The position numbers were made by a program, and so were the translations under genes. From a virus (lineage: Duplodnaviria > Caudoviricetes): a DNA stretch of 64,000 nucleotides. The notes beneath the pieces were generated by a model. The model saw nothing but the letters and a program-made list of their open reading frames with translations, was not told the DNA's origin and ran no database searches. The stretch spans positions 3,951 through 67,950 of IMG/VR virus record IMGVR_UViG_3300006092_000137. One strand, written 5' to 3'. Position 1 is the stretch's first letter; the number at the start of each line of letters is the position of its first letter. This document shows, in pieces, positions 3,284 to 28,718 of the stretch.

Positions 3284-3546
3284 ACCGTGGGCGCCACCGC
3301 AGGTACGTTTGGCTGGTGTGGGTGCGCCCGCACTTCAGCTACCGGCCACCCTCCAGGCACTTGGTGTCGTTGCATTACGTGCGCTGGGCGATGTACCTGC
3401 AGCACAGCTTAGGCAAGTTCACCCCACGTCGTAGCCAGGCCCGCCAAAGGGCCTACGAATGGCGCCAGGTGGCCGAAGGGCAGTGGGCCATGGTAGCCAC
3501 GGGGTGGCGGAAAACGATGGCCCCAGCGGGCAAGGAGGGCCTGTGA
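3280..3546 (+). CDS. hypothetical Trp/Arg-rich protein
   Basis: ATGA overlap with terL stop and GTGA overlap with next gene. Confidence 0.5.
   Translation: MNRGRHRRYVWLVWVRPHFSYRPPSRHLVSLHYVRWAMYLQHSLGKFTPRRSQARQRAYEWRQVAEGQWAMVATGWRKTMAPAGKEGL
3509..3534 (+). promoter_or_regulatory. GGAAA-N14-GGGCAAG motif 1
   Basis: 8 nt before GTG 3543. Confidence 0.65.
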
Positions 3547-3815
3547 AGGTCATTCGCTGGTGGGAGGAGGACAAGTGGGGCAAGCACTTGCTCTGGGTCT
3601 GGCAGGAGGCTCCTCTGGGGGATTCCCATCGTTGGGTGTGCGCTTGGGTAGAGCAGCTGCCTGAAGGGTGGCGCTGTTACGCGCGTGCCGATTTCCACTC
3701 CGACTCGCCGCATCAGTCCTTCGTTGTGAAGGGCTCGTTTGAGCATGCCAAGCGAAAGGCTGCTGCTCAGGCCAAAGTGCTCCAAGCCGCTTTCCGTTTG
3801 GGCGCGCATGTCTAA
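3543..3815 (+). CDS. GSLxWAKRR-family small protein with AAxRLxG tag
   Basis: GTG start overlapping previous stop; GSFEHAKRK...QAAFRLGAHV. Confidence 0.75.
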   Translation: MKVIRWWEEDKWGKHLLWVWQEAPLGDSHRWVCAWVEQLPEGWRCYARADFHSDSPHQSFVVKGSFEHAKRKAAAQAKVLQAAFRLGAHV

Positions 3816-3816
3816 G

Positions 3817-3842
3817 GGAAAATTCATGCGCCTTGGGGCAAT
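3817..3842 (+). promoter_or_regulatory. GGAAA-N14-GGGCAAT motif 2
   Basis: 9 nt before ATG 3852. Confidence 0.6.
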
Positions 3843-3851
3843 GGGAAGGGT

Positions 3852-4106
3852 ATGGCCTACAAGTGGTATGCGCATTTTTACGATTCCGATCAGCCTGAAT
3901 ACGTATTGGTGGAGGAGGTTGGGGAAAATGCAGGCAGACGGCGTGCTTCGATAATTCAAATCAATAAGGCTTGGTGGTGCGAGATCATGAGCCCGCGTCG
4001 TCAGACCGTTTCGTTTTTCAGTCGCGGGTCGTTGAAGTGGGCGAAGCGCCGCGTGTGGCTCGCGTTCCAGCAATTTGACGGTGCTGAGCGGCTGACGGGT
4101 GGATGA
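3852..4106 (+). CDS. GSLxWAKRR-family small protein with AAxRLxG tag
   Basis: GSLKWAKRR...DGAERLTGG. Confidence 0.75.
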   Translation: MAYKWYAHFYDSDQPEYVLVEEVGENAGRRRASIIQINKAWWCEIMSPRRQTVSFFSRGSLKWAKRRVWLAFQQFDGAERLTGG

Positions 4107-4381
4107 TGCGTTTCTGGTGGGAGCTTGAAGAGACTGAAAGGATGCCTCGCTGGCGCATGATGCAGGCGCCAGGCAAGCAGACTACTCGCTGTGCAACAGT
4201 GACTTGGTTAGAGGAAGAGGGCAAAAAAGGTGTGTGGCAGATCATTTTGCATGTGGGCATGCTGAACATCACCAGCACGATGTTTTTCAGCAGGGGCAAT
4301 TTCAAGACGGTGATGCAGCGCACGCGGAAGGAATACCTGCGGTTAAGCGCTGCCTCGCGCTTGACGGGGACGCACTGGTGA
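4103..4381 (+). CDS. diverged GSLxWAKRR-family protein with AAxRLxG tag
   Basis: RGNFKTVMQR...SAASRLTGTHW; ATGA overlap. Confidence 0.7.
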   Translation: MMRFWWELEETERMPRWRMMQAPGKQTTRCATVTWLEEEGKKGVWQIILHVGMLNITSTMFFSRGNFKTVMQRTRKEYLRLSAASRLTGTHW

Positions 4382-4698
4382 CACGCTTGGAAGGTTTGGA
4401 ATGGCGGCGCATCGTAGAGTCGGGCGTTTGGACGCTGGTGGATATGAACTTGGCGCATTTGCTGAGCGGGGGCAGTCATGCGCTCGCGTGGGCTGCTTCG
4501 ATGCGCCCACACCCGCTTCGCACACGCACGGGGGAGCACGTCTACTGGCAGACGACGCTGTACCTTGGAATAAAGAAGCACGAGTACACCTGTCGGGGCT
4601 CCCTCACGTGGGCCAAGCGTCGGGCCCTGCTTGAGTACCGCAAGCGCGAAGCTCAGCTGCGGCTCAAGGGGCAGTGGGTCCGCTATGGTGAAACGTGA
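4378..4698 (+). CDS. GSLxWAKRR-family small protein with AAxRLxG tag
   Basis: GTGA overlap start; GSLTWAKRR...EAQLRLKG. Confidence 0.75.
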   Translation: MTRLEGLEWRRIVESGVWTLVDMNLAHLLSGGSHALAWAASMRPHPLRTRTGEHVYWQTTLYLGIKKHEYTCRGSLTWAKRRALLEYRKREAQLRLKGQWVRYGET

Positions 4699-4994
4699 GT
4701 CACGGGTTTGTTTGGCTCGTTGAGGCGCTGGGTAGAAAGTTAGATCCACATTGGGTCATGGTGCACGAGAAGGCCATGAATAACAGAAGCTCCTGGAGGG
4801 CCCGTGATTGGCGGGTGGAGCTCCACCCGCGCAGTGTGGGCTTCTTGATTCAGGTCTATATCGACTCAGGGAATCGAGGCACGCACTACTTCTACTGCGC
4901 AGGTTCATTGGCCTGGGCAAAGCGGCGGGGGCGGCAGATTTACCAGCGCATGGACGCGGCGAACCGTCTCAAAGGCGTTTCCGAGGAAATTTAG
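4695..4994 (+). CDS. GSLxWAKRR-family small protein with AAxRLxG tag
   Basis: GSLAWAKRR...DAANRLKG. Confidence 0.75.
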   Translation: MSHGFVWLVEALGRKLDPHWVMVHEKAMNNRSSWRARDWRVELHPRSVGFLIQVYIDSGNRGTHYFYCAGSLAWAKRRGRQIYQRMDAANRLKGVSEEI

Positions 4995-5010
4995 AGCAGC
5001 CTGGGGCAAG
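4985..5010 (+). promoter_or_regulatory. GGAAA-N14-GGGCAAG motif 3
   Basis: 10 nt before ATG 5021. Confidence 0.7.
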
Positions 5011-5020
5011 GGAAGGAGCA

Positions 5021-5341
5021 ATGGCTGCTATCCCCGGTACCTACGGTGAGCTGATGGAAGAAATGGAGCACGCGCTGACGTTGGAAGGCGCAGAGCAGCA
5101 AGCCTATGTGCAGAGGCTTCTGGCGCAGAGCGGGCCTCACGCGCGGGAGAACATTGGTTACCTGACTGGGTACTTTGACCGCGAAAAGTCTTCGAAGCTG
5201 CGGGAGCTTTTCAGCGCTCCACATCCAGTGTTTGGCATGCGTCACCCGACGCCTGAGGAAGCGTTCGAGGCAGGGGTGGTGTTGGCCTCGAAGGTCATCA
5301 AGGTGCGGGCGAAGAAACCAAGAAAGGGAAGGAAGAAATGA
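5021..5341 (+). CDS. hypothetical protein with basic C-terminal tail
   Basis: RBS GGAAGGAG before ATG 5021; ends KVRAKKPRKGRKK. Confidence 0.7.
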   Translation: MAAIPGTYGELMEEMEHALTLEGAEQQAYVQRLLAQSGPHARENIGYLTGYFDREKSSKLRELFSAPHPVFGMRHPTPEEAFEAGVVLASKVIKVRAKKPRKGRKK

Positions 5342-5697
5342 ATCCAAAGGTCATGGTGACGCAGCAGGCGGTGGTGAAAAAGGCTCCTATTCAGGTCACT
5401 GTGCCTGTGAAGCTGGTTGAGGGGTTGGAGGGCATTACGCTCGGGTTCCGCGCGGGCATGATCTCTTGCGAGCACGGTGGTGTGGCCACTGGTGCAGGGT
5501 TGGGTAACGATTGGATCCACGTCGATTGGAAGGGTAAACACTTCGCGCTTCGCGGGCTGGACCTCTTGGCTGCCGTGGTGGCCACGTTTGATCCGGAAGA
5601 TGCAAAGGCGATTGCAGGGGCGGAGATCGGTGGGGGTGTCGAAGTCACCGCTGGTGTGGTTGACGTTGCAAAGCCCAAGCGTAAAAGGAAGCGATGA
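5338..5697 (+). CDS. hypothetical protein with basic C-terminal tail
   Basis: ATGA overlap; ends KPKRKRKR. Confidence 0.65.
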   Translation: MNPKVMVTQQAVVKKAPIQVTVPVKLVEGLEGITLGFRAGMISCEHGGVATGAGLGNDWIHVDWKGKHFALRGLDLLAAVVATFDPEDAKAIAGAEIGGGVEVTAGVVDVAKPKRKRKR

Positions 5698-6074
5698 AAA
5701 TCGACGACGAAGAAGTGGACATCCCCTTGCCTGGTGAGCGCGACATTGACGGAACGGGCGGGTTCCTTTTGATGGCGTTTGCGCTGATGGGCGGGGTGTA
5801 CGCCGTCTACTGGTTGGGGGCGTGCTGTGGCTTCTGGTGAGCTCAAGTTTGCATTCGAATGGGACGGAGAGCCGCTCAGCGCCATTCGCGATCTGCTGGA
5901 GCGGTGAGGTGGGCTCCTTTGCACACCAGGAATGCTGCGGCAAGCTCCTCTGGTATCGGCATCTGGACTCCCCGCCGCATTTTTGCCCGAAGCCGAGACA
6001 CCATCGCGGGGCGTGTTGGGCGGGCCTTTCTCTGCAATCGATTTTTGAAGCACTCGCAAGACGAAAGGTGAAAC

Positions 6075-6287
6075 GTGGCAAAGCGAAAAAGTGAGACGGA
6101 GCTGATCCAGCGCGGTGTGCGCCTGGGCATCAAAGCAGCGAACGACAGGCGCCTGGTGGAGTACCGCAGGTTGGTTCAGGTCTACGGCGTGCGTGCAATC
6201 AAGGAAAGCCCTGTTTTCAAAGCGCTCTGGGACGTCGAGATGGACATGTGGAAAATCGTTGAGGGCTTGGGCAAGAAGGCAGCATGA
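6075..6287 (+). CDS. hypothetical protein
   Basis: AGGTG RBS, GTG start, coupled to next gene. Confidence 0.6.
   Translation: MAKRKSETELIQRGVRLGIKAANDRRLVEYRRLVQVYGVRAIKESPVFKALWDVEMDMWKIVEGLGKKAA
6250..6275 (+). promoter_or_regulatory. GGAAA-N14-GGGCAAG motif 4
   Basis: 8 nt before ATG 6284. Confidence 0.65.
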
Positions 6288-6496
6288 GCGAAGAGGCGAA
6301 GCCACGCATGGTGTTCAAGGCCGAGCAAGACACTGAGGACACTGATACGTGGCGCATCAACATGCATCTTGGCGAACGTGGGTACGTGGAGGTTTGTGAA
6401 GGCCAAGCTTACGGCTTGACCTCGAAGGAGACGGCACGCATGTTCGAGGTCATCGCCAAAGCACTCAACGAGCACTACGCGGTGAACCCTTTATGA
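6284..6496 (+). CDS. hypothetical protein
   Basis: ATGA coupling; preceded by GGAAA-N14-GGGCAAG motif. Confidence 0.65.
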   Translation: MSEEAKPRMVFKAEQDTEDTDTWRINMHLGERGYVEVCEGQAYGLTSKETARMFEVIAKALNEHYAVNPL

Positions 6497-6831
6497 GCTC
6501 TGCGGACTGCCCACGCATGAAGCCCGAAGAGGTCATCAAATTCGCCGAGGGGTGGTTGGCGGGAACGGTATTCACCAGCGGTGATGTGCCGCAGGACCTC
6601 TGGGCGATGGTCTTTCTCCCGTTCATTTTCATGGACATCCCAGAGGGTGCTGGGTTTCTGTGGGCCTCGACTGTGGAAGATCAGCTTACCGGGCGGGCGA
6701 TCAACGGCTTTCCCGTTTTCGCTTCATGCCGCTTAATGCACAAGCTCGACGTCGATGTTTGCAAAAGCGCCATCAAAAAGCTTGAAGCAGCTCGTGATGC
6801 GCTGAAGGTGGAGCTCGCCAATGGCGGATGA
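6493..6831 (+). CDS. hypothetical protein
   Basis: ATGA coupling in operon-like run. Confidence 0.6.
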   Translation: MSSADCPRMKPEEVIKFAEGWLAGTVFTSGDVPQDLWAMVFLPFIFMDIPEGAGFLWASTVEDQLTGRAINGFPVFASCRLMHKLDVDVCKSAIKKLEAARDALKVELANGG

Positions 6832-7033
6832 AAACGGCGCTGCCACCATTCACCTGAGCCGGTCGGTCTACGACAACGTTGTCGCTGGAGCCAAGCGCGC
6901 GGGGAGACTTGAAGCGCTCGGTGACGTGAAGGACTTCATCAAAAACTGCAAGCAGGTGGTAGGCACGGCGCAAGAGAGGGACTTCGCCGACTACATCATC
7001 GCCAAGCTTGGTCAGATGGAGAAAGACCTGTGA
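6821..7033 (+). CDS. hypothetical protein
   Basis: GGAG RBS; helical composition. Confidence 0.55.
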   Translation: MADENGAATIHLSRSVYDNVVAGAKRAGRLEALGDVKDFIKNCKQVVGTAQERDFADYIIAKLGQMEKDL

Positions 7034-7227
7034 GCCCGGTTCGCGGAGAAGTCGAAGGGGACGAGTGCCCCGTCTGCAACAACTGCCTCGATTTGGAAGG
7101 CGAGTTTCACGAGGGCTCTGAAGTCGAATGCGAATGCGGTGCGCTGTTGGAGATCACTGACGTTCAGGCTGTGTACACGGTCAGAATGGGTGTGCTCACG
7201 CTGCCAGAGAAGGAAAAGGAAACGTGA
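7030..7227 (+). CDS. LysW-like zinc-ribbon protein
   Basis: CPVC...EVECECGALLEI, acidic; lacks the EDWGE C-terminus of LysW. Confidence 0.55.
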   Translation: MSPVRGEVEGDECPVCNNCLDLEGEFHEGSEVECECGALLEITDVQAVYTVRMGVLTLPEKEKET

Positions 7228-7454
7228 GCATCCGATTGGCGTTGGAGTGCGACAGCTGCGGCATTTCTCTGCACGACGCTTCAAACCCAGTGTCACGGCG
7301 TACCCCCCGGGCTGACCACTTTCGGGCTCGCGCAGAGCGGGAGGGTTGGGCGACCCAATCCATGGGCCTGGATAACCTGGGCACGTCAGGCCCCTCAGAT
7401 TACTGCCAGCGCTGTGTGAAGGAGCGTTCGGCGGGGAGGGACCGAAAGGTATGA
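7224..7454 (+). CDS. small zinc-finger protein
   Basis: CDSC and YCQRC pairs. Confidence 0.55.
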   Translation: MSIRLALECDSCGISLHDASNPVSRRTPRADHFRARAEREGWATQSMGLDNLGTSGPSDYCQRCVKERSAGRDRKV

Positions 7455-7675
7455 TGGATCTGTATTGGCACTGCCTGAAGTGTGGCGCACATGAACTTGT
7501 GCAGCCTACAGGTGGCGACGAGAAGTATGTGCTTGGGGACAAAGAGAAATGCATCGAGTGTGGTGATGGAATGGCACATGTTGTAACGCTTCGAATGGGG
7601 GCGGCTTACGAACAGGGACGAGCGCTCGGCATGAGCGTTAAAGCAGCCTGGGCACGCGCGCAGAGCATCAAATGA
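7451..7675 (+). CDS. small zinc-finger protein
   Basis: CLKC and CIEC pairs. Confidence 0.55.
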   Translation: MMDLYWHCLKCGAHELVQPTGGDEKYVLGDKEKCIECGDGMAHVVTLRMGAAYEQGRALGMSVKAAWARAQSIK

Positions 7676-8019
7676 TGCTGAAGCTCGTCGTGCGCTCTTG
7701 GGAGAATGACTGGTACACCATTCAGCGGTGGGTGATGGAAGGCGAGCACCGCGAGTGGATGGAGCGGGTGGACGAGCACGGCATGACGTTGCGGGATTCG
7801 ACGCGCATCTCCGATGCTGACATTGAAGGGTACTTGGTCGAGTTCAAGCAGCTCGCGCAGGCGATTCGTTCTAGGGGCTCCGCACACTTCAAGCGGTGCG
7901 CTGTCGAGGTGATTGGCGAATACGCTTATTTCTGGTCCCCACGCAATTCGCAGATCCGCGCAGGTGTGCACTTGGATGTGGCCGATGACTTGGCTACCCA
8001 AATTGAGGCCCTGGCGTGA
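7672..8019 (+). CDS. hypothetical protein
   Basis: ATGA coupling. Confidence 0.6.
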   Translation: MMLKLVVRSWENDWYTIQRWVMEGEHREWMERVDEHGMTLRDSTRISDADIEGYLVEFKQLAQAIRSRGSAHFKRCAVEVIGEYAYFWSPRNSQIRAGVHLDVADDLATQIEALA

Positions 8020-8225
8020 CTGCCCGCTGCGTGATGGTGGGCCGAGAAGACCAGCCTCCTCAGTCGTGGTGTGGGCGCAAGCTCAGTGGGCGGGAGTGGT
8101 ACTTCACCAATGAGTCCCACGCGCTCGTGTACTTCAAGAACGCAGATGGGGTGACTGGCATTGCCCCCTGCAAGAAGTGCTTGCGCGCAATGGTGGAACT
8201 CCTGGAGAAGACACTCGCTTTTTAG
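8016..8225 (+). CDS. small Cys-containing protein
   Basis: GTGA coupling; C...WCG...PCKKC. Confidence 0.55.
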   Translation: MTARCVMVGREDQPPQSWCGRKLSGREWYFTNESHALVYFKNADGVTGIAPCKKCLRAMVELLEKTLAF

Positions 8226-8231
8226 CCTTCT

Positions 8232-8257
8232 GGAAAAAAGTGCCTACTCAGGGCAAG
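8232..8257 (+). promoter_or_regulatory. GGAAA-N14-GGGCAAG motif 5
   Basis: 9 nt before ATG 8267. Confidence 0.7.
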
Positions 8258-8266
8258 AGGGTAGGC

Positions 8267-8656
8267 ATGTCAGAAAAACAACCGAAATACCTCCCAGTCG
8301 CAAAGGCAGCCGTGTTGGTGAAGCGCACTCCCAGCGTGGTGTACGCGTGGATCAAACGTGGACAACTGAAGCAAAACCGCAGTGGAAAGGTTGCGCGTGA
8401 AGACGTTCTGCGCGTGGACCATACGCAGCCGCGTCGGGCACCAACGCAAGAAGAAGCGGCGGTGCATCCGGTGATGGCGCGTGAACACTCCGACAACGCT
8501 GCTTTGAAGCAAATTGCCGTAGAGCGCCTAGACGAGCTCCGAGCAGAGAAGGTTGCTGAGCTTCTTGCCATCATTGATCCGGGTACGCGGGTGGACGCGG
8601 AGACGGTGCGTATTGTTGTGGCCCTTGACGCGCATATGAAGAAGCAGGGGGCGTAA
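8267..8656 (+). CDS. excisionase/MerR-like HTH DNA-binding protein
   Basis: YLPVAKAAVLVKRTPSVVYAWIKRGQL fits HTH_17-type pattern. Confidence 0.75.
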   Translation: MSEKQPKYLPVAKAAVLVKRTPSVVYAWIKRGQLKQNRSGKVAREDVLRVDHTQPRRAPTQEEAAVHPVMAREHSDNAALKQIAVERLDELRAEKVAELLAIIDPGTRVDAETVRIVVALDAHMKKQGA

Positions 8657-8658
8657 AA

Positions 8659-8910
8659 ATGTCGATCGTCAGCAAGAAAGTTGGCCCGGGCACTTTCCCC
8701 ACCGACTTCGATTACCACCAGATGGTGGGTGAGTATTCGGTGTACAGCTGGTGCCCGACGCCTGACGGCACGGGGCCCGCGACGCAGGTGCACCTGCATT
8801 TCCACACGGACCTGGGCAAAATCGCGGTGCGCTTGAAATCGGCGCGTGCCTGCGACGAGCTGATCAAGGTCCTGCAGGAGCACCGCGAAGACGTGTGGGG
8901 GAAGCCTTGA
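8659..8910 (+). CDS. hypothetical protein
   Basis: high GC3 ORF with RBS. Confidence 0.6.
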   Translation: MSIVSKKVGPGTFPTDFDYHQMVGEYSVYSWCPTPDGTGPATQVHLHFHTDLGKIAVRLKSARACDELIKVLQEHREDVWGKP

Positions 8911-9200
8911 AGAAAAAGAAAAAGAGACGGTTAAGTTGGCACAAGATGTTGGGCGGTAGTGACGGTGACGAAGGCGTTTGGACCCACAACGAGTATATGG
9001 TCTGTGTTCAGCAGACTCACGACGGCAAGTGGTACTACTCCTGGGATGGCATCAATGCCCACATTACAGATGGTGAAATTTATGGGGGCTTCCTTACACG
9101 TGGTGAGGCTCAACGCGCAGCAATGAAGAACATCGCCGTCGCTGACGCTGTTGGTAGGCTTAGCGATGGAGAGTCCCCGTTTCGACGGTTTGACGATTGA
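8907..9200 (+). CDS. hypothetical protein (beta3-alpha pattern, AAxRL tag)
   Basis: GKWYYSWDG...GFLTRGEAQRAA...DAVGRLSDG; TTGA overlap start. Confidence 0.6.
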   Translation: MKKKKKRRLSWHKMLGGSDGDEGVWTHNEYMVCVQQTHDGKWYYSWDGINAHITDGEIYGGFLTRGEAQRAAMKNIAVADAVGRLSDGESPFRRFDD

Positions 9201-9385
9201 TGCCTCCACCGCGTCCGGTCTGCACCAACATGCGAGAGCTGTTGGAAGTGCTTGCCCAGATGCGTGAATGGCGCAACGCAGGCATGACGGACAAGGAGAT
9301 CTCCGCCCGCATTTACATGCGATGGGTGAAGCCTCGAGAAGCGTTTTACAAAGCCCTGCGGGATGCGAAGAAGGAGCAACGGTGA
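9197..9385 (+). CDS. hypothetical protein
   Basis: coupled ORF. Confidence 0.5.
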   Translation: MMPPPRPVCTNMRELLEVLAQMREWRNAGMTDKEISARIYMRWVKPREAFYKALRDAKKEQR

Positions 9386-9879
9386 GCGAGGAGAGGGTAT
9401 TCGACGACGATCCGAATCTCACAGCCCGAGCACGCTTGAAGTATGTGCTCAAAGACATACAAGACACGTTCGAGGTTGTGGAGCAGGACAACGACTTCTT
9501 GCTGCTCGTTTTGATGCACGTGCTGCAGGTCTTCGGGCAAATCGCGCGTGGTTCAGTACAAGACGGCGGGCGATTAATCGCTCACATTGAAGAAGTGCTC
9601 CGCAGGAAGCACGTGCTGAAGCGCGTGCAGATCCTGGAAGCCAAGCAGCGTTTGACGGGGAACCACGCAGAGCTGAAGCCTTTCGTCGCCATTGAGCCTG
9701 CTGTGGTGGAGCTGATGGACAGGACAGCGCAGGTGATTGAGAGTCTGGGCAACGCAGGTGCTGACGTGTTCCGTAACGACGATGATTCAGAGTCAGCGCG
9801 TGAGTTCCGTGGTGCGTGGATCGTTGCTCGGCATGTGCTTGAAGATCTGAATGCGGTGGTCAAGGAGTTCAAAAAATGA
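9382..9879 (+). CDS. hypothetical helical protein with internal AAxRLxG tag
   Basis: AGGAG RBS, GTG start; EAKQRLTG. Confidence 0.65.
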   Translation: MSEERVFDDDPNLTARARLKYVLKDIQDTFEVVEQDNDFLLLVLMHVLQVFGQIARGSVQDGGRLIAHIEEVLRRKHVLKRVQILEAKQRLTGNHAELKPFVAIEPAVVELMDRTAQVIESLGNAGADVFRNDDDSESAREFRGAWIVARHVLEDLNAVVKEFKK

Positions 9880-10148
9880 CTGAGGAAGAGCTCCAAGAGC
9901 GCCTTGCGCGCATGCGGTCGCACAACTGGCAGGTGAAGGGCGGGTACTTCATCGGTGAGGGCAACTACAGGATCGCCATCAGTTGCACGCACAAGAAGGT
10001 TGGTGCCTGCGGCGGTTGCTATGCGCGTTTGACGAGTGCCATTGAGCTCATCAAAGAAGTGCCAGAAGCAGCAGCGTTGATCTGCTCAGAGCTGCACCAG
10101 GCACAGCTTGCAGAAGGAGCAGCCAAGCGGTTGAAGGGTGAATTTTGA
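9876..10148 (+). CDS. putative Zn-binding protein (paralogue of 11401-11748) with AAxRLxG tag
   Basis: SCTH..GACGGCYARL; EGAAKRLKG. Confidence 0.7.
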   Translation: MTEEELQERLARMRSHNWQVKGGYFIGEGNYRIAISCTHKKVGACGGCYARLTSAIELIKEVPEAAALICSELHQAQLAEGAAKRLKGEF

Positions 10149-10474
10149 ATCTCTGGTGGCGCGAAGAAGGGTTCAACCCCGAAATGCTGCCACCACGTGG
10201 TCGCGTGGCTCTGTACACGGATGCGACGCGCTTCGGGTACACCTACACAGGTGTGTCGTGGGTCTGCTCGACGATCACACTGAAAGGTTATCGTCTGGGG
10301 GAGCCGCGCACACCAATCTGGAGCATCACCTGCCGCCCCAACATCGATTTGGCGGCACCCAGCTTCACAGTGACGGGCTCGCTTGCATGGGCGAAGCGTA
10401 GAGCGCGCCAGAACTTCATTCGTCAGCGCTCGGCCTTAATGCTGGGCGTAGATTTCAAACCGTGGCACCTGTGA
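10145..10474 (+). CDS. GSLxWAKRR-family small protein
   Basis: GSLAWAKRRARQNF; TTG start overlapping previous stop. Confidence 0.7.
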   Translation: MNLWWREEGFNPEMLPPRGRVALYTDATRFGYTYTGVSWVCSTITLKGYRLGEPRTPIWSITCRPNIDLAAPSFTVTGSLAWAKRRARQNFIRQRSALMLGVDFKPWHL

Positions 10475-10770
10475 TGCAGCACATTCTCTCTGAAATTTTG
10501 CCAGCACCAGGAGCGCTCAAGCTCGTGTCGCTGTGCCAAAACGAGCGCAACGACGGTTACGACTCTTACGTCCCGGAGCCACGCTACCTGCCTTGGGTTG
10601 GCTGCCAGGCTTGCTACCGAATTTGGGTGAACTTCAGACGAGACCAAATCAAGGTGCTCAGGAAAGAATTTTTTGAGCTCGATTGGGAGGAAGCCGAATA
10701 CGAGGACAACCTGTTCCACAAGCGCATACGTGAGGCTGCGGATCGGCTCAATGGGAACCACGAGGGATGA
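10471..10770 (+). CDS. hypothetical protein with AAxRLxG tag
   Basis: EAADRLNG near C-terminus. Confidence 0.65.
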   Translation: MMQHILSEILPAPGALKLVSLCQNERNDGYDSYVPEPRYLPWVGCQACYRIWVNFRRDQIKVLRKEFFELDWEEAEYEDNLFHKRIREAADRLNGNHEG

Positions 10771-11099
10771 AGCTACCCATCGTCAAATACGTTCCAGAGA
10801 CGATTCGGGAGTATTGCGATCGTTTGCGCTTGGCGGTGGTGCTTTACAGCGATGGAGCCCTGGCGCTGACCAGCGAGCACTCACCCTTTTTTGAAAAGGG
10901 GGTGTGGATTGAGCTAGCGCCGCGCTACCGCGATCAACTGAAGGAGCTGCAAATGCGACGCTTCAGAATTTGGCAACACCACAAGGGCTCCAAGCAGGCT
11001 TGGGATAACGAGAAGTTCTATGGGCTCTTCGAAGGCATCGAACAGGCCGCTCGTCTGATAAAGGCCAATGAAGCTGCCCAGCGCCTGACGGGCCTGTAA
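10767..11099 (+). CDS. hypothetical protein with AAxRLxG tag
   Basis: ends EAAQRLTGL. Confidence 0.7.
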   Translation: MKLPIVKYVPETIREYCDRLRLAVVLYSDGALALTSEHSPFFEKGVWIELAPRYRDQLKELQMRRFRIWQHHKGSKQAWDNEKFYGLFEGIEQAARLIKANEAAQRLTGL

Positions 11100-11125
11100 G
11101 GAAAGTTTCAGGGTCCTCGGGCAAG
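11100..11125 (+). promoter_or_regulatory. GGAAA-N14-GGGCAAG motif 6
   Basis: 9 nt before ATG 11135. Confidence 0.7.
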
Positions 11126-11134
11126 GGGTCATGT

Positions 11135-19876: not shown

Positions 19877-19925
19877 TCCCACAGTACTGTAGAAACCTTG
19901 TGTCAAGAATCCAGAAGGGGAAAAC

Positions 19926-20450: not shown

Positions 20451-21110
20451 ATGGACACCAAGACGGAATTGAGCTGGGGGTTTCGTGCGTTCCGCTGGTG
20501 GAGCGGGCTGCTCGTTTGGTTGTACTTCAGCCTGCGCGGCTACCAGGCGAAGTCGTGGCTGTACCGGTACGTCTTCGAGTGGAAGTATCTCAAGCTCCCG
20601 ATCTGCACAGTGCCGTCGATCGACCTGATACCTGCCATCATCGACTACGGGAAGCAGTGGCGCAGCGACAGCTGGCTGCAAGGTTTCGACGCAGTGAGCT
20701 CGCCGCAGTACGCGCAAGAGGTGTTTCTCAACCGGGCGCCAGTACCTGAGCACGGGCTGGACTGCGACGAGCACGCCATTTTCATCACCGCGCTGATTGA
20801 GAATTCCCTGCGCGAGGGCACGTGCGATGACGGGTACTACAGCCCGAAGTTCTTCACCGTCATTTGGATCGATCCCGAGACGCTCAGCATTTCAGGGCAC
20901 AATGTCTGTTTGCTGACGGTGCCGCAGGGCCCGGGGAAGTTCGACCTGTACAGCTACATGGACTACGGCCTTCCAAACACCCCTGTGAATTCGATTCATG
21001 AAGTAGCGCTGCAGGTCATTGAAGAGCGCGCGAAGGGTTCGCTGCCTCTGGTGTGGATGGTGCAGAACACTGCGCTGACACCTGAAATCGTTCAGAGAGG
21101 GGCACCATGA
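20451..21110 (+). CDS. transglutaminase-like (Cys-His-Asp) putative cysteine protease
   Basis: GLDCDEHAIF, GHNVCL, YMDYG in catalytic-triad order. Confidence 0.55.
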   Translation: MDTKTELSWGFRAFRWWSGLLVWLYFSLRGYQAKSWLYRYVFEWKYLKLPICTVPSIDLIPAIIDYGKQWRSDSWLQGFDAVSSPQYAQEVFLNRAPVPEHGLDCDEHAIFITALIENSLREGTCDDGYYSPKFFTVIWIDPETLSISGHNVCLLTVPQGPGKFDLYSYMDYGLPNTPVNSIHEVALQVIEERAKGSLPLVWMVQNTALTPEIVQRGAP

Positions 21111-21319
21111 AGAACGGCATTTACCGTCACTACAAGGGCGACCTGTACATGGTCTTGGGTGTGGGGCGGCAGTCCACCAATGGGCCAACAGAAGGCGAAA
21201 AAGTGGTGATCTACTTCTCCATCAAACGGCAGCAGTTTTGCGTGCGAGAGATCGGGCAGTTTCGCGAAAAGGTGAAGTGGCCTGACGGAAAGATGCGTCC
21301 TCGTTTCAAGGCGGTCTAA
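21107..21319 (+). CDS. DUF1653 domain protein
   Basis: GIYRHYKGDLYMVLGVG...VVIY...VRE..QF...RF. Confidence 0.85.
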   Translation: MKNGIYRHYKGDLYMVLGVGRQSTNGPTEGEKVVIYFSIKRQQFCVREIGQFREKVKWPDGKMRPRFKAV

Positions 21320-21321
21320 AA

Positions 21322-21927
21322 ATGAACAGCTACCCGTACACCCCGTGGTTCATCGGTGGGCTTGGTGTCGCCATTCTCGTTGCATTCGGCGTGATGGCGT
21401 ACATGACTTGGCGTCGTACCTACGTGCCCTGGAAGCCCCTGCCCAACTATTACCCGGGTGCCAAGTGGCACAGCTTGGTGCAGACGGACCCCAAGTACAT
21501 CGCCATGGCGCTTGCTGCAGCGGAGAGCGCCTTGATTCAGCACACCAAGTGGACCGCTGCGAATATGGCTTTGGTCGGGCATTACGTCCACGTCTACGTG
21601 ATGGACTCCGAATCGTGGGTTGACTTATGGGGGCGCAAGGTGGCCGGTTACCAAGACGGGCACAAGCTGGTGGTTGGGCCCTCGCTCGCGGCGCTCGCGC
21701 ACGAACTCGCTCACCTTGCTGAGCTGGTGCTCGACGGAGTGGTGGACCAGAACCACATGTCTTGGCCCGCAGACGGCATCGCCAATGCACTTGAAGATTA
21801 CGATCAGTGGTTGGCCAAGCAGGCGAGCGCGGATCGCATTCTGGCTGCGAACGGAGCTATCGTACCTTTCGTTGCACCAAAGGTTCTCACAGGGATGTCC
21901 GCTTGTCGTTATCGGAGACCTGAGTGA
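21322..21927 (+). CDS. membrane-anchored HExxH putative zinc metallopeptidase
   Basis: N-terminal TM helix; LAHELAHL; downstream H. Confidence 0.6.
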   Translation: MNSYPYTPWFIGGLGVAILVAFGVMAYMTWRRTYVPWKPLPNYYPGAKWHSLVQTDPKYIAMALAAAESALIQHTKWTAANMALVGHYVHVYVMDSESWVDLWGRKVAGYQDGHKLVVGPSLAALAHELAHLAELVLDGVVDQNHMSWPADGIANALEDYDQWLAKQASADRILAANGAIVPFVAPKVLTGMSACRYRRPE

Positions 21928-22106
21928 AGAAAGATGATGAAGCAGTTGCGCGGTTACAGGGCAGCACTCAATGCCCAGTGTGCCTGCGCACGAAGGTTAA
22001 GCTTCACACGGGGCCTAAGAACACACTTTTGATCGCTATCCACGCTCCCGCCCCGTACCTCCGTTCGGTTTGTTTGGGTTCAGGGAAAGAGGTTGGCAAA
22101 AAATGA
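21924..22106 (+). CDS. small zinc-finger protein with N-terminal AAxRLxG tag
   Basis: DEAVARLQGS then CPVC...H...CLGSG. Confidence 0.55.
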   Translation: MKKDDEAVARLQGSTQCPVCLRTKVKLHTGPKNTLLIAIHAPAPYLRSVCLGSGKEVGKK

Positions 22107-22393
22107 CCTGGAAGCAATTGGTGGGCAAGGCTGCAAACGGAATGCTTCTTCCTCCTTTTTGGAAGCGCCGCACGGTGCCTCAGAAGGAGCTCGAAAGGGC
22201 GCTGAAGGTCGCTTTCACCGCAATCGCCGAAGAAGCACTTCATGGGCGTAAGGTTGTCATTCCAGGTTTCGGCGTGTTCTCGCTGCGCACCCGCGTCGCC
22301 CGCAGGGTCCGCAACCCAGTCACCAAAGAGATGATGCAAATCCCTGCCGATCGTCGCATCGGCTTTCGCTGTTCCAAACTCATTGTGAGGTAA
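22103..22393 (+). CDS. HU/IHF family DNA-binding protein
   Basis: VVIPGFGVFSLRTRVARRVRNPVTKEMMQIPADRRIGF. Confidence 0.9.
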   Translation: MTWKQLVGKAANGMLLPPFWKRRTVPQKELERALKVAFTAIAEEALHGRKVVIPGFGVFSLRTRVARRVRNPVTKEMMQIPADRRIGFRCSKLIVR

Positions 22394-22395
22394 AA

Positions 22396-22965
22396 ATGAT
22401 TCGTGAAATTGTGATCTGGCCGGACCCGGTGTTGAAACGGAAGTGCGAACCCGTCACCAGGTTCGATGACGAGCTGAAACGGTTACTCAACGACATGATG
22501 GAAACGATGTTGGCTGCTCGTGGAGCAGGACTCGCAGCGTCGCAGGTTGGGTACGCGTTGCGCGCCATCACGGTGTTGGTGCGGACCCCAGAGAACAAAG
22601 AGAACCCGGTGATGGTGCTGAAGCTGGTGAACCCGGAAATCGTCGAGCGCAAGGGGCGTCAGCAGATGCGTGAGGGGTGCCTTTCGCTGCCCGGGTATTT
22701 CGACATGGTGACACGCTCGACTTGGGTGCGCGTGGTGGCTCAAGACGAAAACGGCGAGAAGGTTGAAATCTCGGGTGACGGAGCCCTTGCGCAGGCGCTG
22801 CAGCACGAAATTGAGCACCTGGACGGCATGGTCTTCGTGGACCACCTTTCAATCATCAAGCGCAACACGGCAGCGATTCGCTTCAAGAAGGCAAAGGCCA
22901 AGGGAATGCGCTACGTTTCTGATAGACCAGCGCCCCAGGACTTTACCGAGCGCACCGCCAACTGA
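22396..22965 (+). CDS. def: peptide deformylase
   Basis: all three motifs: GAGLAASQVG, EGCLSLPG, QHEIEHLDG. Confidence 0.95.
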   Translation: MIREIVIWPDPVLKRKCEPVTRFDDELKRLLNDMMETMLAARGAGLAASQVGYALRAITVLVRTPENKENPVMVLKLVNPEIVERKGRQQMREGCLSLPGYFDMVTRSTWVRVVAQDENGEKVEISGDGALAQALQHEIEHLDGMVFVDHLSIIKRNTAAIRFKKAKAKGMRYVSDRPAPQDFTERTAN

Positions 22966-22976
22966 AGGAGTAGTCG

Positions 22977-24863
22977 ATGCCGAGCGCATTGCCGTCGAAC
23001 CCCGGGCTTCTTGGCCGTATGGCGAGCGTGCTCGGAGGCAAGCTGGGCAGCAAAGACAACCCCCAAAACGCCCAAGACCGCGTGCGCCGCTTGGGGCTCT
23101 CAAAGCGCCAGCAGGAGCTCAACCGTCTCTGGGCGGTGTACCGGGGGCAGCAATACGCCCACTGCAAGCTGGACTGGAACGGGCGCGAGAACATCGACGA
23201 CCTGTCGGGGGAAATCATTTCCACGCAGGGGTATGTGCCCCCCGGCTTCATGGACATGGGGCGGGGTGCGGGCAACCTGCCGTTGAAGTTTCGACGCCCG
23301 ACTTCTCCCTACGCGCTGATTCGCGTGGTGGTGGACCGCTTCACGGGCTTGCTGTTCAGCGAGCAGCAGCATCCTGAAATCAAAGTTGATGGGGACCCAA
23401 AAACGCAGGAGTGGCTGCGCGCGGTCGCAAGCACGTCGCGGCTTTGGCAGCATATGATCCAGGCCCGCAATTACGGGGGCTCGATGGGCACCGCGTGCAT
23501 TGGGTTCCAATTCGTCAACGGCAAACCCACCATCGAAGTGCATGACCCAAAGTGGGTTACGCCTGAGTTCAGGAAGCACGGCTCGCTCACGTTGGTGAAG
23601 CTCGAAAAGCGGTACATCTTCGAGAAGGAAGTACGCGACGAGACGACAGGGCGTTGGGAGAACAAGTCATTCTGGTACCGCCGCATCATCGACGAGCAGA
23701 GCGATGTGCTCTTCCAACCAGCGGAAGTCGGCAACGGTGACGAGCCAGACTGGCAAGAAGCCGAACGCGTGGACCACAACTTCGGCTTTTGCCCTGCTGT
23801 TTGGGTGCAGAATCTGCCGGTGCAAGACAGCGAAGACGGGGACCCCGATTGCCCGTCCCCTGTTTATGACAATGCCTGGAACATCGACGCGTTGATCTCA
23901 CAAGCCAACCGCGCCATTTTGGCCAACTGCGATCCGCAGCTCGTCATCACCACGAAGGCGGAGATGGCTGAAGTGCAGATGGCGCTCGACAAGGCCCTGC
24001 GCGTTCCTGAGGGTGACGCCAAGTTTTTGGAGGTGCAGGCGACCGGCCCAAAAGCCGCGCTGGAGCTCTCTGACCAGCTTCGCCGTAATTCGCTGGAGGT
24101 GTCCCACTGCGTACTGGAGCACCCTGATGTGGCAGGCAAAACTGCCACAGAGGTGGAGCGCATGTACCAGGCGATGTTCAACAAGTGTGACATTTTGCGT
24201 GAGCAGTATGGGCAGAAGGGCATTTTGCCCCTGTTGGAGATGTTCCATCGCGCAGCGGTCGCCTTAAACAAGCCCCGCCCGGCTCACCAAGACGCGGCGA
24301 CGCGGCTCCAAGGAACCTTCGAACAACCGCCCCAGGCGCCCCCAGGAACGCAGAACGAGGGGCAGCCTGGGGGTGAGGCTCCCCCCGCCCAGAACGCAGC
24401 TCCTACAGCCCCTCAGGCAGGCGCTGTAACCGACGAGAATGACGGGATGATTATGCCCCAGGGGGCTCTTTTGGTGCGGAGTTCTGTTGTTCTTCCGCCG
24501 ACTTACCAGCTCAACCCCCAGACGGGGCAGATGGAGGAGATTCAACGGGAGCTTGGGTTTGGCGGCACCATCACCTTGGTGTGGCCGGAATTCGTGCGCC
24601 CCACCCTCGACGACCTGACGAAGGCTGTAACCGCGACCACTGGGGCGTTGTCGGCGAACTTGATCGACGACGAGACAGCGGTGGGCTTCGTTGCGCCGTA
24701 CTTCAAGGTCGAAGACAAGAGCGACCTGTTAAACAAGATTCGAAACAACGCTGCTCAGCAGCAGGCGGACATGATGTCGATGTTCGCTTCTTCAAACCAA
24801 CCAAAGCCAAGTGACGTGACGGCTCCTCCTGGACCGATCATTCCGCCTGCTCCAACGGAATAG
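22977..24863 (+). CDS. portal protein with low-complexity insertion
   Basis: size, position before head morphogenesis gene, HNFGFCPAVWVQN motif typical of SPP1-like portals. Confidence 0.8.
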   Translation: MPSALPSNPGLLGRMASVLGGKLGSKDNPQNAQDRVRRLGLSKRQQELNRLWAVYRGQQYAHCKLDWNGRENIDDLSGEIISTQGYVPPGFMDMGRGAGNLPLKFRRPTSPYALIRVVVDRFTGLLFSEQQHPEIKVDGDPKTQEWLRAVASTSRLWQHMIQARNYGGSMGTACIGFQFVNGKPTIEVHDPKWVTPEFRKHGSLTLVKLEKRYIFEKEVRDETTGRWENKSFWYRRIIDEQSDVLFQPAEVGNGDEPDWQEAERVDHNFGFCPAVWVQNLPVQDSEDGDPDCPSPVYDNAWNIDALISQANRAILANCDPQLVITTKAEMAEVQMALDKALRVPEGDAKFLEVQATGPKAALELSDQLRRNSLEVSHCVLEHPDVAGKTATEVERMYQAMFNKCDILREQYGQKGILPLLEMFHRAAVALNKPRPAHQDAATRLQGTFEQPPQAPPGTQNEGQPGGEAPPAQNAAPTAPQAGAVTDENDGMIMPQGALLVRSSVVLPPTYQLNPQTGQMEEIQRELGFGGTITLVWPEFVRPTLDDLTKAVTATTGALSANLIDDETAVGFVAPYFKVEDKSDLLNKIRNNAAQQQADMMSMFASSNQPKPSDVTAPPGPIIPPAPTE

Positions 24864-26741: not shown

Positions 26742-26954
26742 GTCCAAAAAAGTGACGTGCACCCAGCAACAATATAAGCTACGCCGCGTCAACACTTTTT
26801 GTACCTGGAGCCGTTCATGAAGCGTCGCAGTAGCCGATATCTGTGTTGGGGCCTTGCCCCACCTGGTTGAATCTACTGCGTCGTCAATGGCCGTGCCTCT
26901 GGGGGATAGGAGGCAACGGTCGTGCTTACGTCAAACGCTTACCGATGGGTCTAC

Positions 26955-27131
26955 ATGGACCCGCGAGTCGCTCTGCAAAAACCCACCAAGTCTGAAGCGC
27001 CCGCTGCGCATGTGCTTGACGTCGAGCGCCTTGCTCGCACGTGCCTCAACTGCGGAGCACAAATGCAGGATCAGCGCTGTCGATTGGCCTGCACTTGCGG
27101 CTACTATGCGAGTTGCACGGACATCATTTAA
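26955..27131 (+). CDS. small zinc-ribbon protein
   Basis: CLNCG...CRLACTCGYYASC. Confidence 0.55.
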   Translation: MDPRVALQKPTKSEAPAAHVLDVERLARTCLNCGAQMQDQRCRLACTCGYYASCTDII

Positions 27132-27173
27132 GAGGTGTGCTACACCGCGAGCACTTTCTGACAGGAGCGCCAC

Positions 27174-28088
27174 ATGCCGATGATGGAGAAGTCGAAGCTT
27201 CACGCGTTCGCAGTGAAAGCCGCGAAACCCCCCAACGGTGCAGTGATGTTGGCGCAAAAGCGGAATGCTTCGAAGGCTCCTCCCCCGATGGCTGGTAAAC
27301 CCGCTGCTCCCGCAGCGGCAGCCCCCGGGGACGAAATGGAAGAAGAGAGCGTCAACCTCTTCGACCTGGTGGAGGAAGCCGCGCAAAAAGCGGAATCGGG
27401 CGAGGACGTTGACCTCGAAGATGTCGTGGCGGAAACGCAAAGCGCGGGGCCTGACGACGTTCCCGAATGGGTCGAAGACCCGGCGAAGTGGGCAGAAGCT
27501 GCTGAGGCAGTTGGTCTTGGCGTGCCCGGCACCGAAGACAAGTACGATGAGCCCATTGTCGTCACGGCCTACCTGTACAAGATGATCGGTGGTCCGGTGA
27601 AAGGGCTTGAGCTCCCTGACGTTCCAGTGAAACCCGAGGACGAAGAGGGCGAGTCAGACATGTCGAAGCCGGGCGCTGCGGCCAAGGCCATTCAGGCCCG
27701 CGCGGCTTCTAAAGGGGCTCCTCCCGCTGCAGGAGCTGCATCCAAAGCACCCCCAGCGGGCGCCAAGGCCCCTCCCGCCGCGCCTGGTAAAGCGCCCCCG
27801 GCAGCTACTGGGAAAGCTCCCGGACCGGCTGCTGGTGCCGAGGGTGGCGACGAGCTCAAGCAAATGCTCGACGAAGCTGCCGAGCAAGCTGCTTCAACCC
27901 CTGACCCGGAAGTTGTCGAGAAGCTGCAGCTCGAACCGCCGCAAGAGGGTACTCCCCCGAGTTGGGCGGTGGATCAGGACAAGTGGGCGAAGGCTGAAGA
28001 GGCTGTGAAAATGCACTGGGACGAGTACCCGGAGCCGTTCATGGTGGTCGCTCACGTGTACAAGAACATGGGCGGCGCGATTCAGTAA
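27174..28088 (+). CDS. acidic Ala/Pro-rich protein with duplicated PxW..KW..YK..GG module
   Basis: AGGAG RBS; two internal repeats separated by an AAP-rich linker. Confidence 0.8.
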   Translation: MPMMEKSKLHAFAVKAAKPPNGAVMLAQKRNASKAPPPMAGKPAAPAAAAPGDEMEEESVNLFDLVEEAAQKAESGEDVDLEDVVAETQSAGPDDVPEWVEDPAKWAEAAEAVGLGVPGTEDKYDEPIVVTAYLYKMIGGPVKGLELPDVPVKPEDEEGESDMSKPGAAAKAIQARAASKGAPPAAGAASKAPPAGAKAPPAAPGKAPPAATGKAPGPAAGAEGGDELKQMLDEAAEQAASTPDPEVVEKLQLEPPQEGTPPSWAVDQDKWAKAEEAVKMHWDEYPEPFMVVAHVYKNMGGAIQ

Positions 28089-28124
28089 AAAACCTGTAGG
28101 TTTTCCACACCTTAAAAGCGCTTC

Positions 28125-28150
28125 GGAAAATGCCTTGGAAAAAGGGCAAG
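28125..28150 (+). promoter_or_regulatory. GGAAA-N14-GGGCAAG motif 9
   Basis: 10 nt before ATG 28161. Confidence 0.7.
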
Positions 28151-28160
28151 AGAACAAGAA

Positions 28161-28718
28161 ATGGCGAGCGGAGCTGAAATCGATAAATTGAAGCAAAAGC
28201 TTGCACAAGCCCGTGCAAAGGACCCGTATGGGTCAGAGCAGAGAAAGCTTTTCAATAGACTTGCGCGGTATGAAGCGAAGCGCACTGTTGAACGGAATGC
28301 CTATTACAATTCTGGTTTTAAAGAGACCCCCAAAGCTGCTTATTCAGGTTTCGACGAAACGGCTCTTCGACAGAAATTTCGAGATGAAGTTGAACCTGAA
28401 CTCAAAGTTTCTCATGCGCAACATGAAGCAGAGAAGCTTCGAGCAGCCGGAGATAAAGTTGGAGCATTCAAGCATGAGATGAAGGCAACGTCGGCCTTCA
28501 ACAAAGCAGCGCTTGACAAGTTGGTTAAGTTGAAGGCTGAAGGAAAGCTCTCGAAAGAGGCCGTTGAGAAATTGAAGACTGCCAAAGAGAAAATGGACTC
28601 GATCAATAAGCGGCTCGGCGGTGAAAACAAAGAGCAGTCTAAAAGTATCGAGACCGGTGCTCGTGGCGGACGCTATTACATGAGCGACAGCGGGCAAAAG
28701 GTCTACATCAAGGAGTAG
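28161..28718 (+). CDS. Lys/Glu-rich helical protein with C-terminal basic-adaptor-like module
   Basis: ends ETGARGGRYYMSDSGQKVYIKE. Confidence 0.8.
   Translation: MASGAEIDKLKQKLAQARAKDPYGSEQRKLFNRLARYEAKRTVERNAYYNSGFKETPKAAYSGFDETALRQKFRDEVEPELKVSHAQHEAEKLRAAGDKVGAFKHEMKATSAFNKAALDKLVKLKAEGKLSKEAVEKLKTAKEKMDSINKRLGGENKEQSKSIETGARGGRYYMSDSGQKVYIKE

Follow-up and report, generated by a model that had tools for sequence, protein, structure and literature searches.

Our analysis suggests that ten copies of a bipartite motif, GGAAA-N14-GGGCAAK, in a phage genome (G000) are probably promoters of a sigma factor encoded by the phage itself, and that they would give rise there to leaderless or nearly leaderless mRNAs. 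Within the window, by which we mean the whole 64,000-nt stretch of DNA that was analysed, an exact pattern search re-found the nine + strand copies listed in a preliminary description, each with its exact 14-nt spacer, whereas 100 dinucleotide-preserving shuffles averaged 0.05 matches and never gave more than 2. The same record contains a tenth copy ahead of the window (G000:1770-1795), where the sole ORF nearby has 14 codons and begins 12 nt downstream, with no gene at the usual distance. When the entire record was scored with a weight matrix these ten sites reached 23.6-29.7 bits and the runner-up only 13.3 on each strand. The GGAAA/GGGCAA dyad is by far the most repeated 5-mer/gap/6-mer pair of the record (10 copies versus at most 4 for unrelated dyads). 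GGGCAAG by itself is not enriched (19 observed, 15 expected); 8 of the 19 belong to motif copies, the ninth window copy having GGGCAAT instead, and all 11 remaining sites lack the GGAAA box, as had been reported for a subset of them. The proposed extension of the left box to GGAAA(A/T)T is seen as GGAAAAT in 6/10 copies. Moreover, both boxes are invariant and the spacer and flanks are unrelated between copies, which argues that selection acts on the boxes and does not point to recent copying. The dyad is asymmetric, and all ten copies are on the coding strand. The phage is uncultured and comes from activated sludge, and its virus record is 67,950 bp long.

Each of the nine window copies is followed closely by a start codon. 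Copy 1 (GGAAAAC...GGGCAAG, 3509-3534) lies in the 3' end of the ORF at 3280-3546, with a GTG at 3543 8 nt on; copy 2 (right box GGGCAAT, 3817-3842) is intergenic, with an ATG at 3852 9 nt on; copy 3 (4985-5010) overlaps the stop codon of the ORF at 4815-4994 and precedes the ATG at 5021 by 10 nt; and copy 4 (6250-6275) is in the 3' end of the ORF at 6075-6287, 8 nt from the ATG at 6284. Copy 5 (8232-8257) is again intergenic (ATG 8267, 9 nt on), copy 6 (11100-11125) begins 1 nt past the stop at 11099 (ATG 11135, 9 nt on), copy 7 (16173-16198) is intergenic (ATG 16209, 10 nt on), copy 8 (17357-17382) is in the 3' end of the ORF at 16858-17394 (ATG 17391, 8 nt on), and copy 9 (28125-28150) is intergenic in the head module (ATG 28161, 10 nt on). 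The distance of 8-10 nt originally claimed is therefore correct for every window copy, as is the placement of three of them (3509, 6250 and 17357) inside the upstream gene. The start codon is ATG in eight of nine cases, and 8/9 of the claimed starts agree with codon-usage gene calls made without the motif; the GTG at 3543 is in frame within such a call and consistent with a GTGA stop/start overlap with the ORF at 3280-3546. Several copies are located in upstream ORFs with ATGA/GTGA overlaps, and copies so placed are certainly transcribed within longer RNAs.

With 8-10 nt between the right box and the start codon, transcription should begin at or near the AUG, and it is from this distance that we predict leaderless or nearly leaderless mRNAs in G000. 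If the -10 hexamer is taken as CAAGNN the gap shrinks to 6-8 nt, a geometry that fits the leaderless genes of Deinococcus, in which the -10 element is 6-7 bp from the start (PMC12340547). The 8-10 nt ahead of the ATG are purine-rich (e.g. GGAAGGAGCA and AGGGTAGGC) and resemble a weak, close-set Shine-Dalgarno sequence, nearer the ATG than the AGGAGG sites of the structural genes, which stand out clearly and are spaced 5-8 nt from the start; the rest of the phage likewise has canonical AGGAGG sites. An mRNA with no leader at all would have no use for such a stretch, though transcripts reading through from upstream might. The only 'metatranscriptomic' runs in which the phage occurs (X3 and X4) are stored as contigs and are probably DNA.

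The candidate sigma factor noted at 63844-64000 proved to belong to a sigma-70-family protein of 192 aa (P0010), of which it is the C-terminal end. The window holds, on the minus strand, the 3' part of its gene (last 51 codons and stop, with the region 4 helix-turn-helix), cut by the record end, and the translation of 63844-63999 is 100% identical to P0010 residues 142-192; P0010 sits on a 94,380-bp contig, and the contig spanning the window DNA is also 94,380 bp. A six-frame search of the record for sigma domains found nothing because region 2 falls past the record end. The full protein passes the Pfam Sigma70_r2 model (PF04542; 30.5 bits, cut-off 24, residues 29-76) and has no reportable score with the Pfam region-4 models. 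Its AlphaFold model (pLDDT 90.5) consists of two helical domains, residues 3-75 and 114-190, with a lower-confidence linker between them, and the top Foldseek matches in the PDB are all sigma factors (SigL, SigH, AlgU, sigma-32 and SigA; probability 0.97-1.0, best E-value just 6e-3). The family to which P0010 belongs comprises 233 cluster representatives of 163-246 aa, mostly 175-195 aa, and its profile matches CnrH and sigma-E across positions ~12-173 (E 1e-6 to 5e-5). This is a separate, unnamed family; if, as is likely, the phage sigma reads the motif, the mode of phage gene control would be a known one, with a new sigma family and a new promoter consensus. Directly downstream of the sigma gene lies a ParB-like gene (63169-63822, minus strand), a neighbourhood kept in the relatives G001 and G005.

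The preliminary description had proposed an ECF-sigma regulon. Two conserved boxes at a fixed spacing, placed ahead of genes in their orientation, on one strand and far above chance, have the anatomy of a sigma promoter, and that part of the proposal is supported; however, the ECF assignment of the phage sigma is not established. With 192 aa and two helical domains P0010 has the size and layout of an ECF sigma (regions 2 and 4 only, ~170-200 aa), but although it aligns to TIGR02937, the NCBIfam ECF model, over residues 7-170, it stays below the cut-off of 42.9 bits with 33.9, as does the G001 sigma with 30.0. RpoS, RpoH and SigA region 2 were matched better by the family profile than ECFs were, and SigB/F/G family models match relatives only weakly. 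The downstream neighbour of the sigma gene is ParB and not an anti-sigma gene in G000, G001 and G005, and as to autoregulation, 0/7 sites in G001 precede the sigma gene, the closest (22671) being ~5 kb downstream of it. For the right box GGGCAA, the resemblance to a sigma-B-type -10 (GGGTAT after a 14-bp spacer, PMC9847131) seems no weaker than that to an ECF -10.

A motif search in related genomes, as suggested earlier, found variant sites. In G001 (TerL 68% identical), which encodes a homologous 183-aa sigma beside ParB, there are 7 sites of the form GG[ACT][ACT]A[AG]-N13-GGGCAA[AG] (GGAYAA-N13-GGGCAA), and L234 (TerL 77%) and L237 (TerL 69%) have 3 each, in all cases on the coding strand only with 0 on the other. 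Both G001 and L235 again have motif sites immediately behind the terminase gene. The spacing to the start is 8-10 nt in L234 and L237, apart from one L234 site at 13 nt. In G001, however, three sites lie 22-30 nt ahead of starts with a canonical Shine-Dalgarno in between, which argues that the motif does not belong to the ribosome binding site; a further site (53111) has the same motif/Shine-Dalgarno layout ahead of a short ORF only, and the remaining sites are 8-9 or 28-70 nt from starts. Thus the fixed spacing described at the outset holds for G000, L237 and, with that one exception, L234, but is not a property of the motif as such. The right box is conserved between G000 and G001, whereas the -35 box differs (GGAAAAT versus GGAYAAC), and the sigmas of the two phages differ in the region-4 recognition helix as well. 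Motif searches found no comparable motif in the more distant G004 and G005, which have family sigmas. The MAG bin labels of related contigs conflict (Acidimicrobiaceae, Armatimonadetes and a proteobacterium).

The genes behind the motif copies are small, of unknown function and mostly packed between terminase and portal, in a block of ~35 small accessory genes that spans 19.7 kb here and 6.7 kb in G001. The first two downstream genes (3543 and 3852) resemble paralogues, and most downstream proteins are mutually unrelated. Structural genes are without the motif, and other promoters must therefore also be used by the phage. Consensus sigma-70 promoters are depleted in the 3-23 kb region (1 versus 5.8 +/- 2.0 in shuffles), no second promoter-like signal was seen to accompany the motif, and a T7-like RNA polymerase was found in neither G000 nor the complete G001.

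We propose that host RNA polymerase carrying the 192-aa two-domain phage sigma would recognise the ten copies on DNA, with the left box GGAAA(A/T)T as a putative -35 element read by region 4 and the right box GGGCAAG, possibly 2 nt longer, as a putative -10 element read by region 2. Expression of the sigma itself, from the sigma-ParB block on the minus strand, would presumably come first, and the sigma might then turn on the small-gene cassettes between terminase and portal together with one head-module unit. In G000 transcription would start on the AUG or no more than a few nt from it, and in G001 the same promoter type may also drive ordinary Shine-Dalgarno-containing leaders. That P0010 reads the motif is suggested by the co-occurrence of sigma and motif sequences in two genomes (G000 and G001), and we likewise infer the bases that make up the -10, where transcription starts and when.

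The same promoters might instead be read by an alternative sigma of the host, either ECF or sigma-B-like, with the phage sigma serving other, e.g. late, promoters. GGAAA-type -35 and GGG-initial -10 elements are indeed known from promoters of bacterial alternative sigmas (sigma B, PMC9847131), the structural genes, which would be the expected targets of a phage sigma, are without the motif, and G004 and G005 have family sigmas with no motif found. Yet a family sigma is present in both genomes examined for sigma and sites together, and the parallel differences between G000 and G001 in -35 box and region-4 helices are more easily explained by a co-evolving phage sigma than by a conserved host factor; we consider the host-sigma explanation rather unlikely. 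A different possibility is that the motif acts in RNA, either as a linear operator of a phage translational regulator, of which T4 RegA is an RNA-binding example, or as a site of processing by which downstream cistrons are released from long polycistronic transcripts. In its favour, the motif covers the place of ribosome binding, 8-10 nt from the start (13 at the one L234 site), in G000, L234 and L237, the copies within upstream ORFs are surely present in longer RNAs, and CAAGG(A/G)G at some copies is like part of a Shine-Dalgarno. The translational operator raised in the preliminary description is nevertheless weakened, because a consensus structure among the motif copies has 0 predicted pairs and the distance to the start is variable in G001, where at most sites the motif lies 22-70 nt upstream and a separate canonical Shine-Dalgarno is present. 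Moreover, a pair of boxes set at a constant distance by unconserved sequence is typical of sites read on the face of a DNA helix and unlike known linear RNA operators, and a cognate sigma gene is present, all of which makes an RNA-level role improbable.

We also considered that the motif could be the site of some other activator or repressor near unrecognised promoters, or a passive remnant of duplicated cassettes. The paralogous appearance of the genes at 3543 and 3852 does suggest that some copies may stem from cassette duplication, but most downstream proteins are unrelated and the boxes are invariant amid unrelated spacers and flanks. In addition, most operator sites are palindromic and this motif is asymmetric, and the lack of an accompanying promoter-like signal, together with the depletion of sigma-70-like sites, speaks against promoters of another kind nearby; we regard this explanation as very improbable. 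Promoters of the phage sigma are thus the reading that we prefer. Beyond it we can only tentatively suggest that an undescribed family of small phage sigmas (~190 aa, at least 233 clusters) runs a dedicated leaderless-mRNA regulon. Were this the case, fast-evolving accessory genes would be expressed via a channel separate from that of the Shine-Dalgarno-dependent structural genes, and from phage to phage the promoter boxes would evolve in step with regions 2 and 4 of the sigma.

If confirmed, the compact sigma and its short promoter (GGAAAAT-N12-GGGCAAG) would form an orthogonal pair from an uncultured phage lineage, with a natural set of sites of differing spacers for the study of promoter strength, and would show how a phage retains control of an expanding block of ~35 small accessory genes. 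From the promoter-to-ATG distance follows a further prediction, sigma-specific leaderless transcripts in a phage that otherwise uses strong ribosome binding sites, and genome annotation gains from the motif nine fixed start codons for small ORFs that are otherwise uninterpretable.

Similar regulation is known from other phages, in which gp28, gp34 and gp55 control middle and late genes (PMC9429907). As proposed here, gp28 and gp33/34 of the Bacillus phage SPO1 and gp55 of T4 involve a phage sigma that redirects host RNA polymerase to a repeated phage consensus; however, the present sigma is of a separate unnamed family (~175-195 aa), and the genes it probably controls are not structural late genes but small accessory ones that lie between terminase and portal. 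To our knowledge GGAAA-N14-GGGCAAG matches no SPO1 or T4 consensus. ECF (group 4) promoters are of types such as GGAAC-N16/17-CGT. Our system resembles them in its small two-domain sigma (sigma-2 and sigma-4), its strictly bipartite promoter with a G/A-rich -35 starting with GGAA, and the ECF-like spacing of GGAAA-N17-CAAG, but its -35 is without the AAC core, there is no CGT-type -10, and the neighbour on the downstream side is ParB and not an anti-sigma gene. Compared with the sigma-B-type (group 3) promoter GTTTAA-N14/15-GGGTAT (PMC9847131), GGAAAA-N13-GGGCAA has a similarly short spacer and GGG-initial -10 (GGGCAA equals GGGTAT at 4/6 positions), although the -35 GGAAAA is unrelated to GTTTAA and in the ~190-aa phage sigma no distinct region 3 domain was recognised. 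Finally, the -10-like element would abut the ORF as the -10 does in leaderless genes of Deinococcus-Thermus (PMC12340547) and in lambda cI, which is leaderless when transcribed from PRM (PMC10491246); here, however, the predicted leaderless state would be tied to an alternative, phage-specific bipartite promoter and not to a housekeeping -10.

We predict with considerable confidence that the copies of the two-box motif GGAAA-N14-GGGCAA(G/T) are promoters of one kind or another and, with more reserve, that these promoters are paired specifically with a sigma factor made by the phage itself. Exact matching of GGAAA-N14-GGGCAAK finds nine copies in the window, at 3509, 3817, 4985, 6250, 8232, 11100, 16173, 17357 and 28125, all on the + strand and against a mean of 0.05 in shuffled sequence, which upholds the nine-copy, single-strand motif of the preliminary description. 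A tenth copy, at positions 1770-1795 of the IMG/VR record (G000), precedes the window by 2,180 nt and falls within the 3' end of an ORF; the ATG 12 nt downstream of it opens a frame of 14 codons only and the next called gene follows after about 120 nt. As a promoter, this copy may give a transcript with a long leader or serve a micropeptide gene. Scored with a weight matrix derived from the two boxes, the ten sites reach 23.6-29.7 bits and everything else on either strand at most 13.3; every other gapped dyad of the record occurs at most 4 times. The boxes are invariant, and the spacer and flanks are nearly free of information. The gap between right box and start codon is 8-10 nt at nine genes, and for eight of these a gene call that made no use of the motif gave the same start; three copies are fully contained in an upstream ORF, at its 3' end, and a further one overlaps a stop codon. 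GGGCAAG by itself shows no enrichment (19 copies against 15 expected), and the observation that it occurs elsewhere without the GGAAA box holds for 11 of the 11 copies outside the motif. A search of IMG/VR for exact GGAAAAT-N12-GGGCAAG was uninformative, giving single chance matches per contig among the matches listed.

The record is 67,950 bp long with an estimated completeness of 77%, the window being its bases 3951-67950, and it encodes a large terminase (window 1739-3283), portal (22977-24863), scaffold and major head protein (33221-35637), tail sheath (38847-40847), tape measure and fibre-like proteins. From the tail sheath, terminase, portal, head and tape measure genes it follows that the phage is tailed, with a contractile tail. 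The + strand carries 104 of 113 genes in a gene call from codon usage, and the starts of the structural genes are preceded, at 5-8 nt, by canonical ribosome sites of the AGGAGG type. Megablast with 20 kb of the window found no GenBank phage similar at the DNA level. The phage DNA is present in activated-sludge metagenomes, in one run of which a single contig of 94,380 bp spans the whole window. No RNA data set is listed for the phage. Three runs labelled metatranscriptomic (X3, X4 and X7) consist of contigs and probably derive from DNA; the ends of those contigs, which cannot show transcription starts, are not aligned with motif sites.

Pfam sigma models have no match within the G000 record itself. 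In G001, a complete related genome of 93.8 kb whose TerL is 68% identical, a 183-aa Sigma70_r2 ORF stands immediately upstream of a ParB gene, and the open frame at window 63844-63999 (-), also upstream of a ParB gene, matches the last 50 residues of that protein (40% identity, E 1e-10). A HMMER search with the G001 sigma yielded 233 cluster representatives, nearly all of them 175-195 aa long and aligned over the entire length; a word-based homologue search returned only the query itself, single-protein locus scans with the G000 or G001 sigma gave no new phages, and the contigs matched in a scan with ParB were all distant and unrelated. One of the representatives, the 192-aa protein P0010, shows 100% identity with the window's open frame across its 51 residues, and the contig listed for it measures 94,380 bp, the length of the contig that spans the window DNA. 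For these two reasons P0010 is almost certainly this phage's own protein, its gene cut by the record end. P0010 passes the Sigma70_r2 model (30.5 bits, cut-off 24), and its AlphaFold model (pLDDT 90.5) has two helical domains; the leading Foldseek matches are all sigma factors, with weak E-values because the two domains are placed freely. The earlier proposal of a sigma candidate at 63844-64000 is thus confirmed, this being the tail of P0010. Its ECF label exceeds the evidence, since residues 7-170 align to the sigma70-ECF superfamily model at 33.9 bits, below the cut-off of 42.9. E-values of the family profile are 1e-11 to 1e-9 against region 2 of RpoS, RpoH and SigA, and 1e-6 to 5e-5 against the ECFs CnrH and sigma-E, which it matches over their full length. 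Together with ParB and three further ORFs the sigma gene forms the sole sizeable minus-strand block (window 62043-64000), inverted with respect to G001, where they point in the same direction as the remaining genome; the sigma-ParB adjacency is kept in G000, G001 and G005. Sigma70_r2 ORFs are present in 8 of 10 TerL-related records at least 90% complete by estimate, and those of G005, G004 and G014 are members of this sigma family.

Related phages also carry the motif. In G001, seven sites of the form GG[ACT][ACT]A[AG]-N13-GGGCAA[AG] lie on the coding strand and none on the other, one of them beginning 3 nt past the terminase stop. Three sites are followed after 22-30 nt by a start, with a canonical Shine-Dalgarno in between, a layout repeated at site 53111 with only a short ORF; at two others the distance is 8-9 nt, and at one it is larger. 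L234 (TerL 77%), the closest relative found, carries GGAAAA(A/T)...(A/G)GGCAA(G/T) at three sites, separated from an ATG by 8, 9 or 13 nt. L237 (TerL 69%) likewise has three, and there the start codon comes 9 nt after each. The sites of both lie on the coding strand; L235 has one site, at the terminase stop. The motif is thus conserved within a subclade, in which the -35-like box drifts (GGAAAAT, GGAYAAC, GGAAAC) while GGCAA(G) is constant. The fixed 8-10 nt spacing described earlier stands for the nine starts of this phage but is not inherent in the motif as such. No comparable motif emerged in more distant relatives from de novo searches that were weak: Shine-Dalgarno sequences and codon repeats swamped both the dyad counts and a home-made EM finder, which failed to recover even its positive control cleanly; because these searches failed, absence from G004 and G005 is weak evidence. 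Two distant TerL relatives, G020 (L209-L213) and G022 (L214-L218), hold many palindromic repeats, namely CGACCAAA...TTTGGTCG in about 8-12 copies and GACGC-N13-GCGTC in about 13-14 copies upstream of genes. These may be terminators or operator sites and are a different kind of element, unrelated to the two-box motif.

Eight of the ten motif copies fall between terminase and portal (window 3283-22977), a hyperplastic interval with about 35 small ORFs in 19.7 kb, compared with 6.7 kb in the syntenic interval of G001. Consensus sigma-70 promoter-like sites are depleted here (window 3000-22999: 1 versus 5.8 +/- 2.0 in shuffled sequence). Terminator-like hairpins in the same stretch are at chance level (17 versus 20.3). 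The proteins starting at 3543 and 3852 (window 3543-4106) share a C-terminal GS(F/L)xxAKR(K/R) and look like paralogues, and a tail resembling (D/E)AAxRLxG closes several small proteins, such as ...EAAQRLTGL just before motif copy 6 (window 11060-11099) and ...GAERLTGG ending the 3852 protein. Amid the small genes, and distant from the tail module, window 13486-15522 encodes a 678-aa protein with a Laminin_G_3/concanavalin-like lectin domain (Pfam 30.5 bits).

A sigma-dependent promoter class fits these observations because the boxes are invariant around a fixed spacer of free sequence, because the copies are strictly co-oriented with genes and front gene cassettes, and because sigma-70 consensus promoters are depleted in the same 20 kb. 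That the motif is the site of another DNA-binding protein, or a duplication remnant, we hold to be very improbable. An RNA operator or processing site could sit as close to start codons as the copies do here; the lack of a common RNA fold and the variable leader length in G001 favour the promoter class, and we consider the RNA reading improbable. A structured RNA element was rejected on the basis of 0 consensus pairs, a sigma-54 type (GG-N10-GC) on that of spacing, and a T7-like promoter on that of the unconserved spacer together with the finding of no single-subunit RNA polymerase, in a search whose control genomes were unable to give a positive for that family. A phage sigma is present in both genomes that could be checked (G000 and G001), which again speaks for the sigma-dependent class. 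Reading by a host sigma instead seems to us unlikely. In a search for the host, a TerL scan of GTDB genomes gave no match, and three MAG contigs matched in a capsid scan were rejected as host evidence on account of conflicting bin labels.

For the preferred reading, promoters served by the phage sigma, the boxes can be read as ECF-like, GGAAA-N17-CAAG, or as hexamers, GGAAAA-N13-GGGCAA, similar in layout to sigma-B-type promoters (GTTTAA-N14/15-GGGTAT; PMC9847131). Under either reading transcription in this phage would start at or just before the ATG. A -10 hexamer taken as CAAGNN would end 6-8 nt before the ATG, much like the 6-7 bp spacing of leaderless Deinococcus genes (PMC12340547). The purine-rich 8-10 nt before the start could be a discriminator, or could be a weak ribosome site for genes read from longer upstream transcripts. 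Phage-made sigmas with promoter classes of their own are well known, as in SPO1 gp28 and gp34 and T4 gp55 (PMC9429907). What is new here is the sigma family, which has no name in the sources searched, the consensus, the predicted leaderless geometry, and the target genes, predicted to be the roughly 35 small genes of unknown function between terminase and portal.
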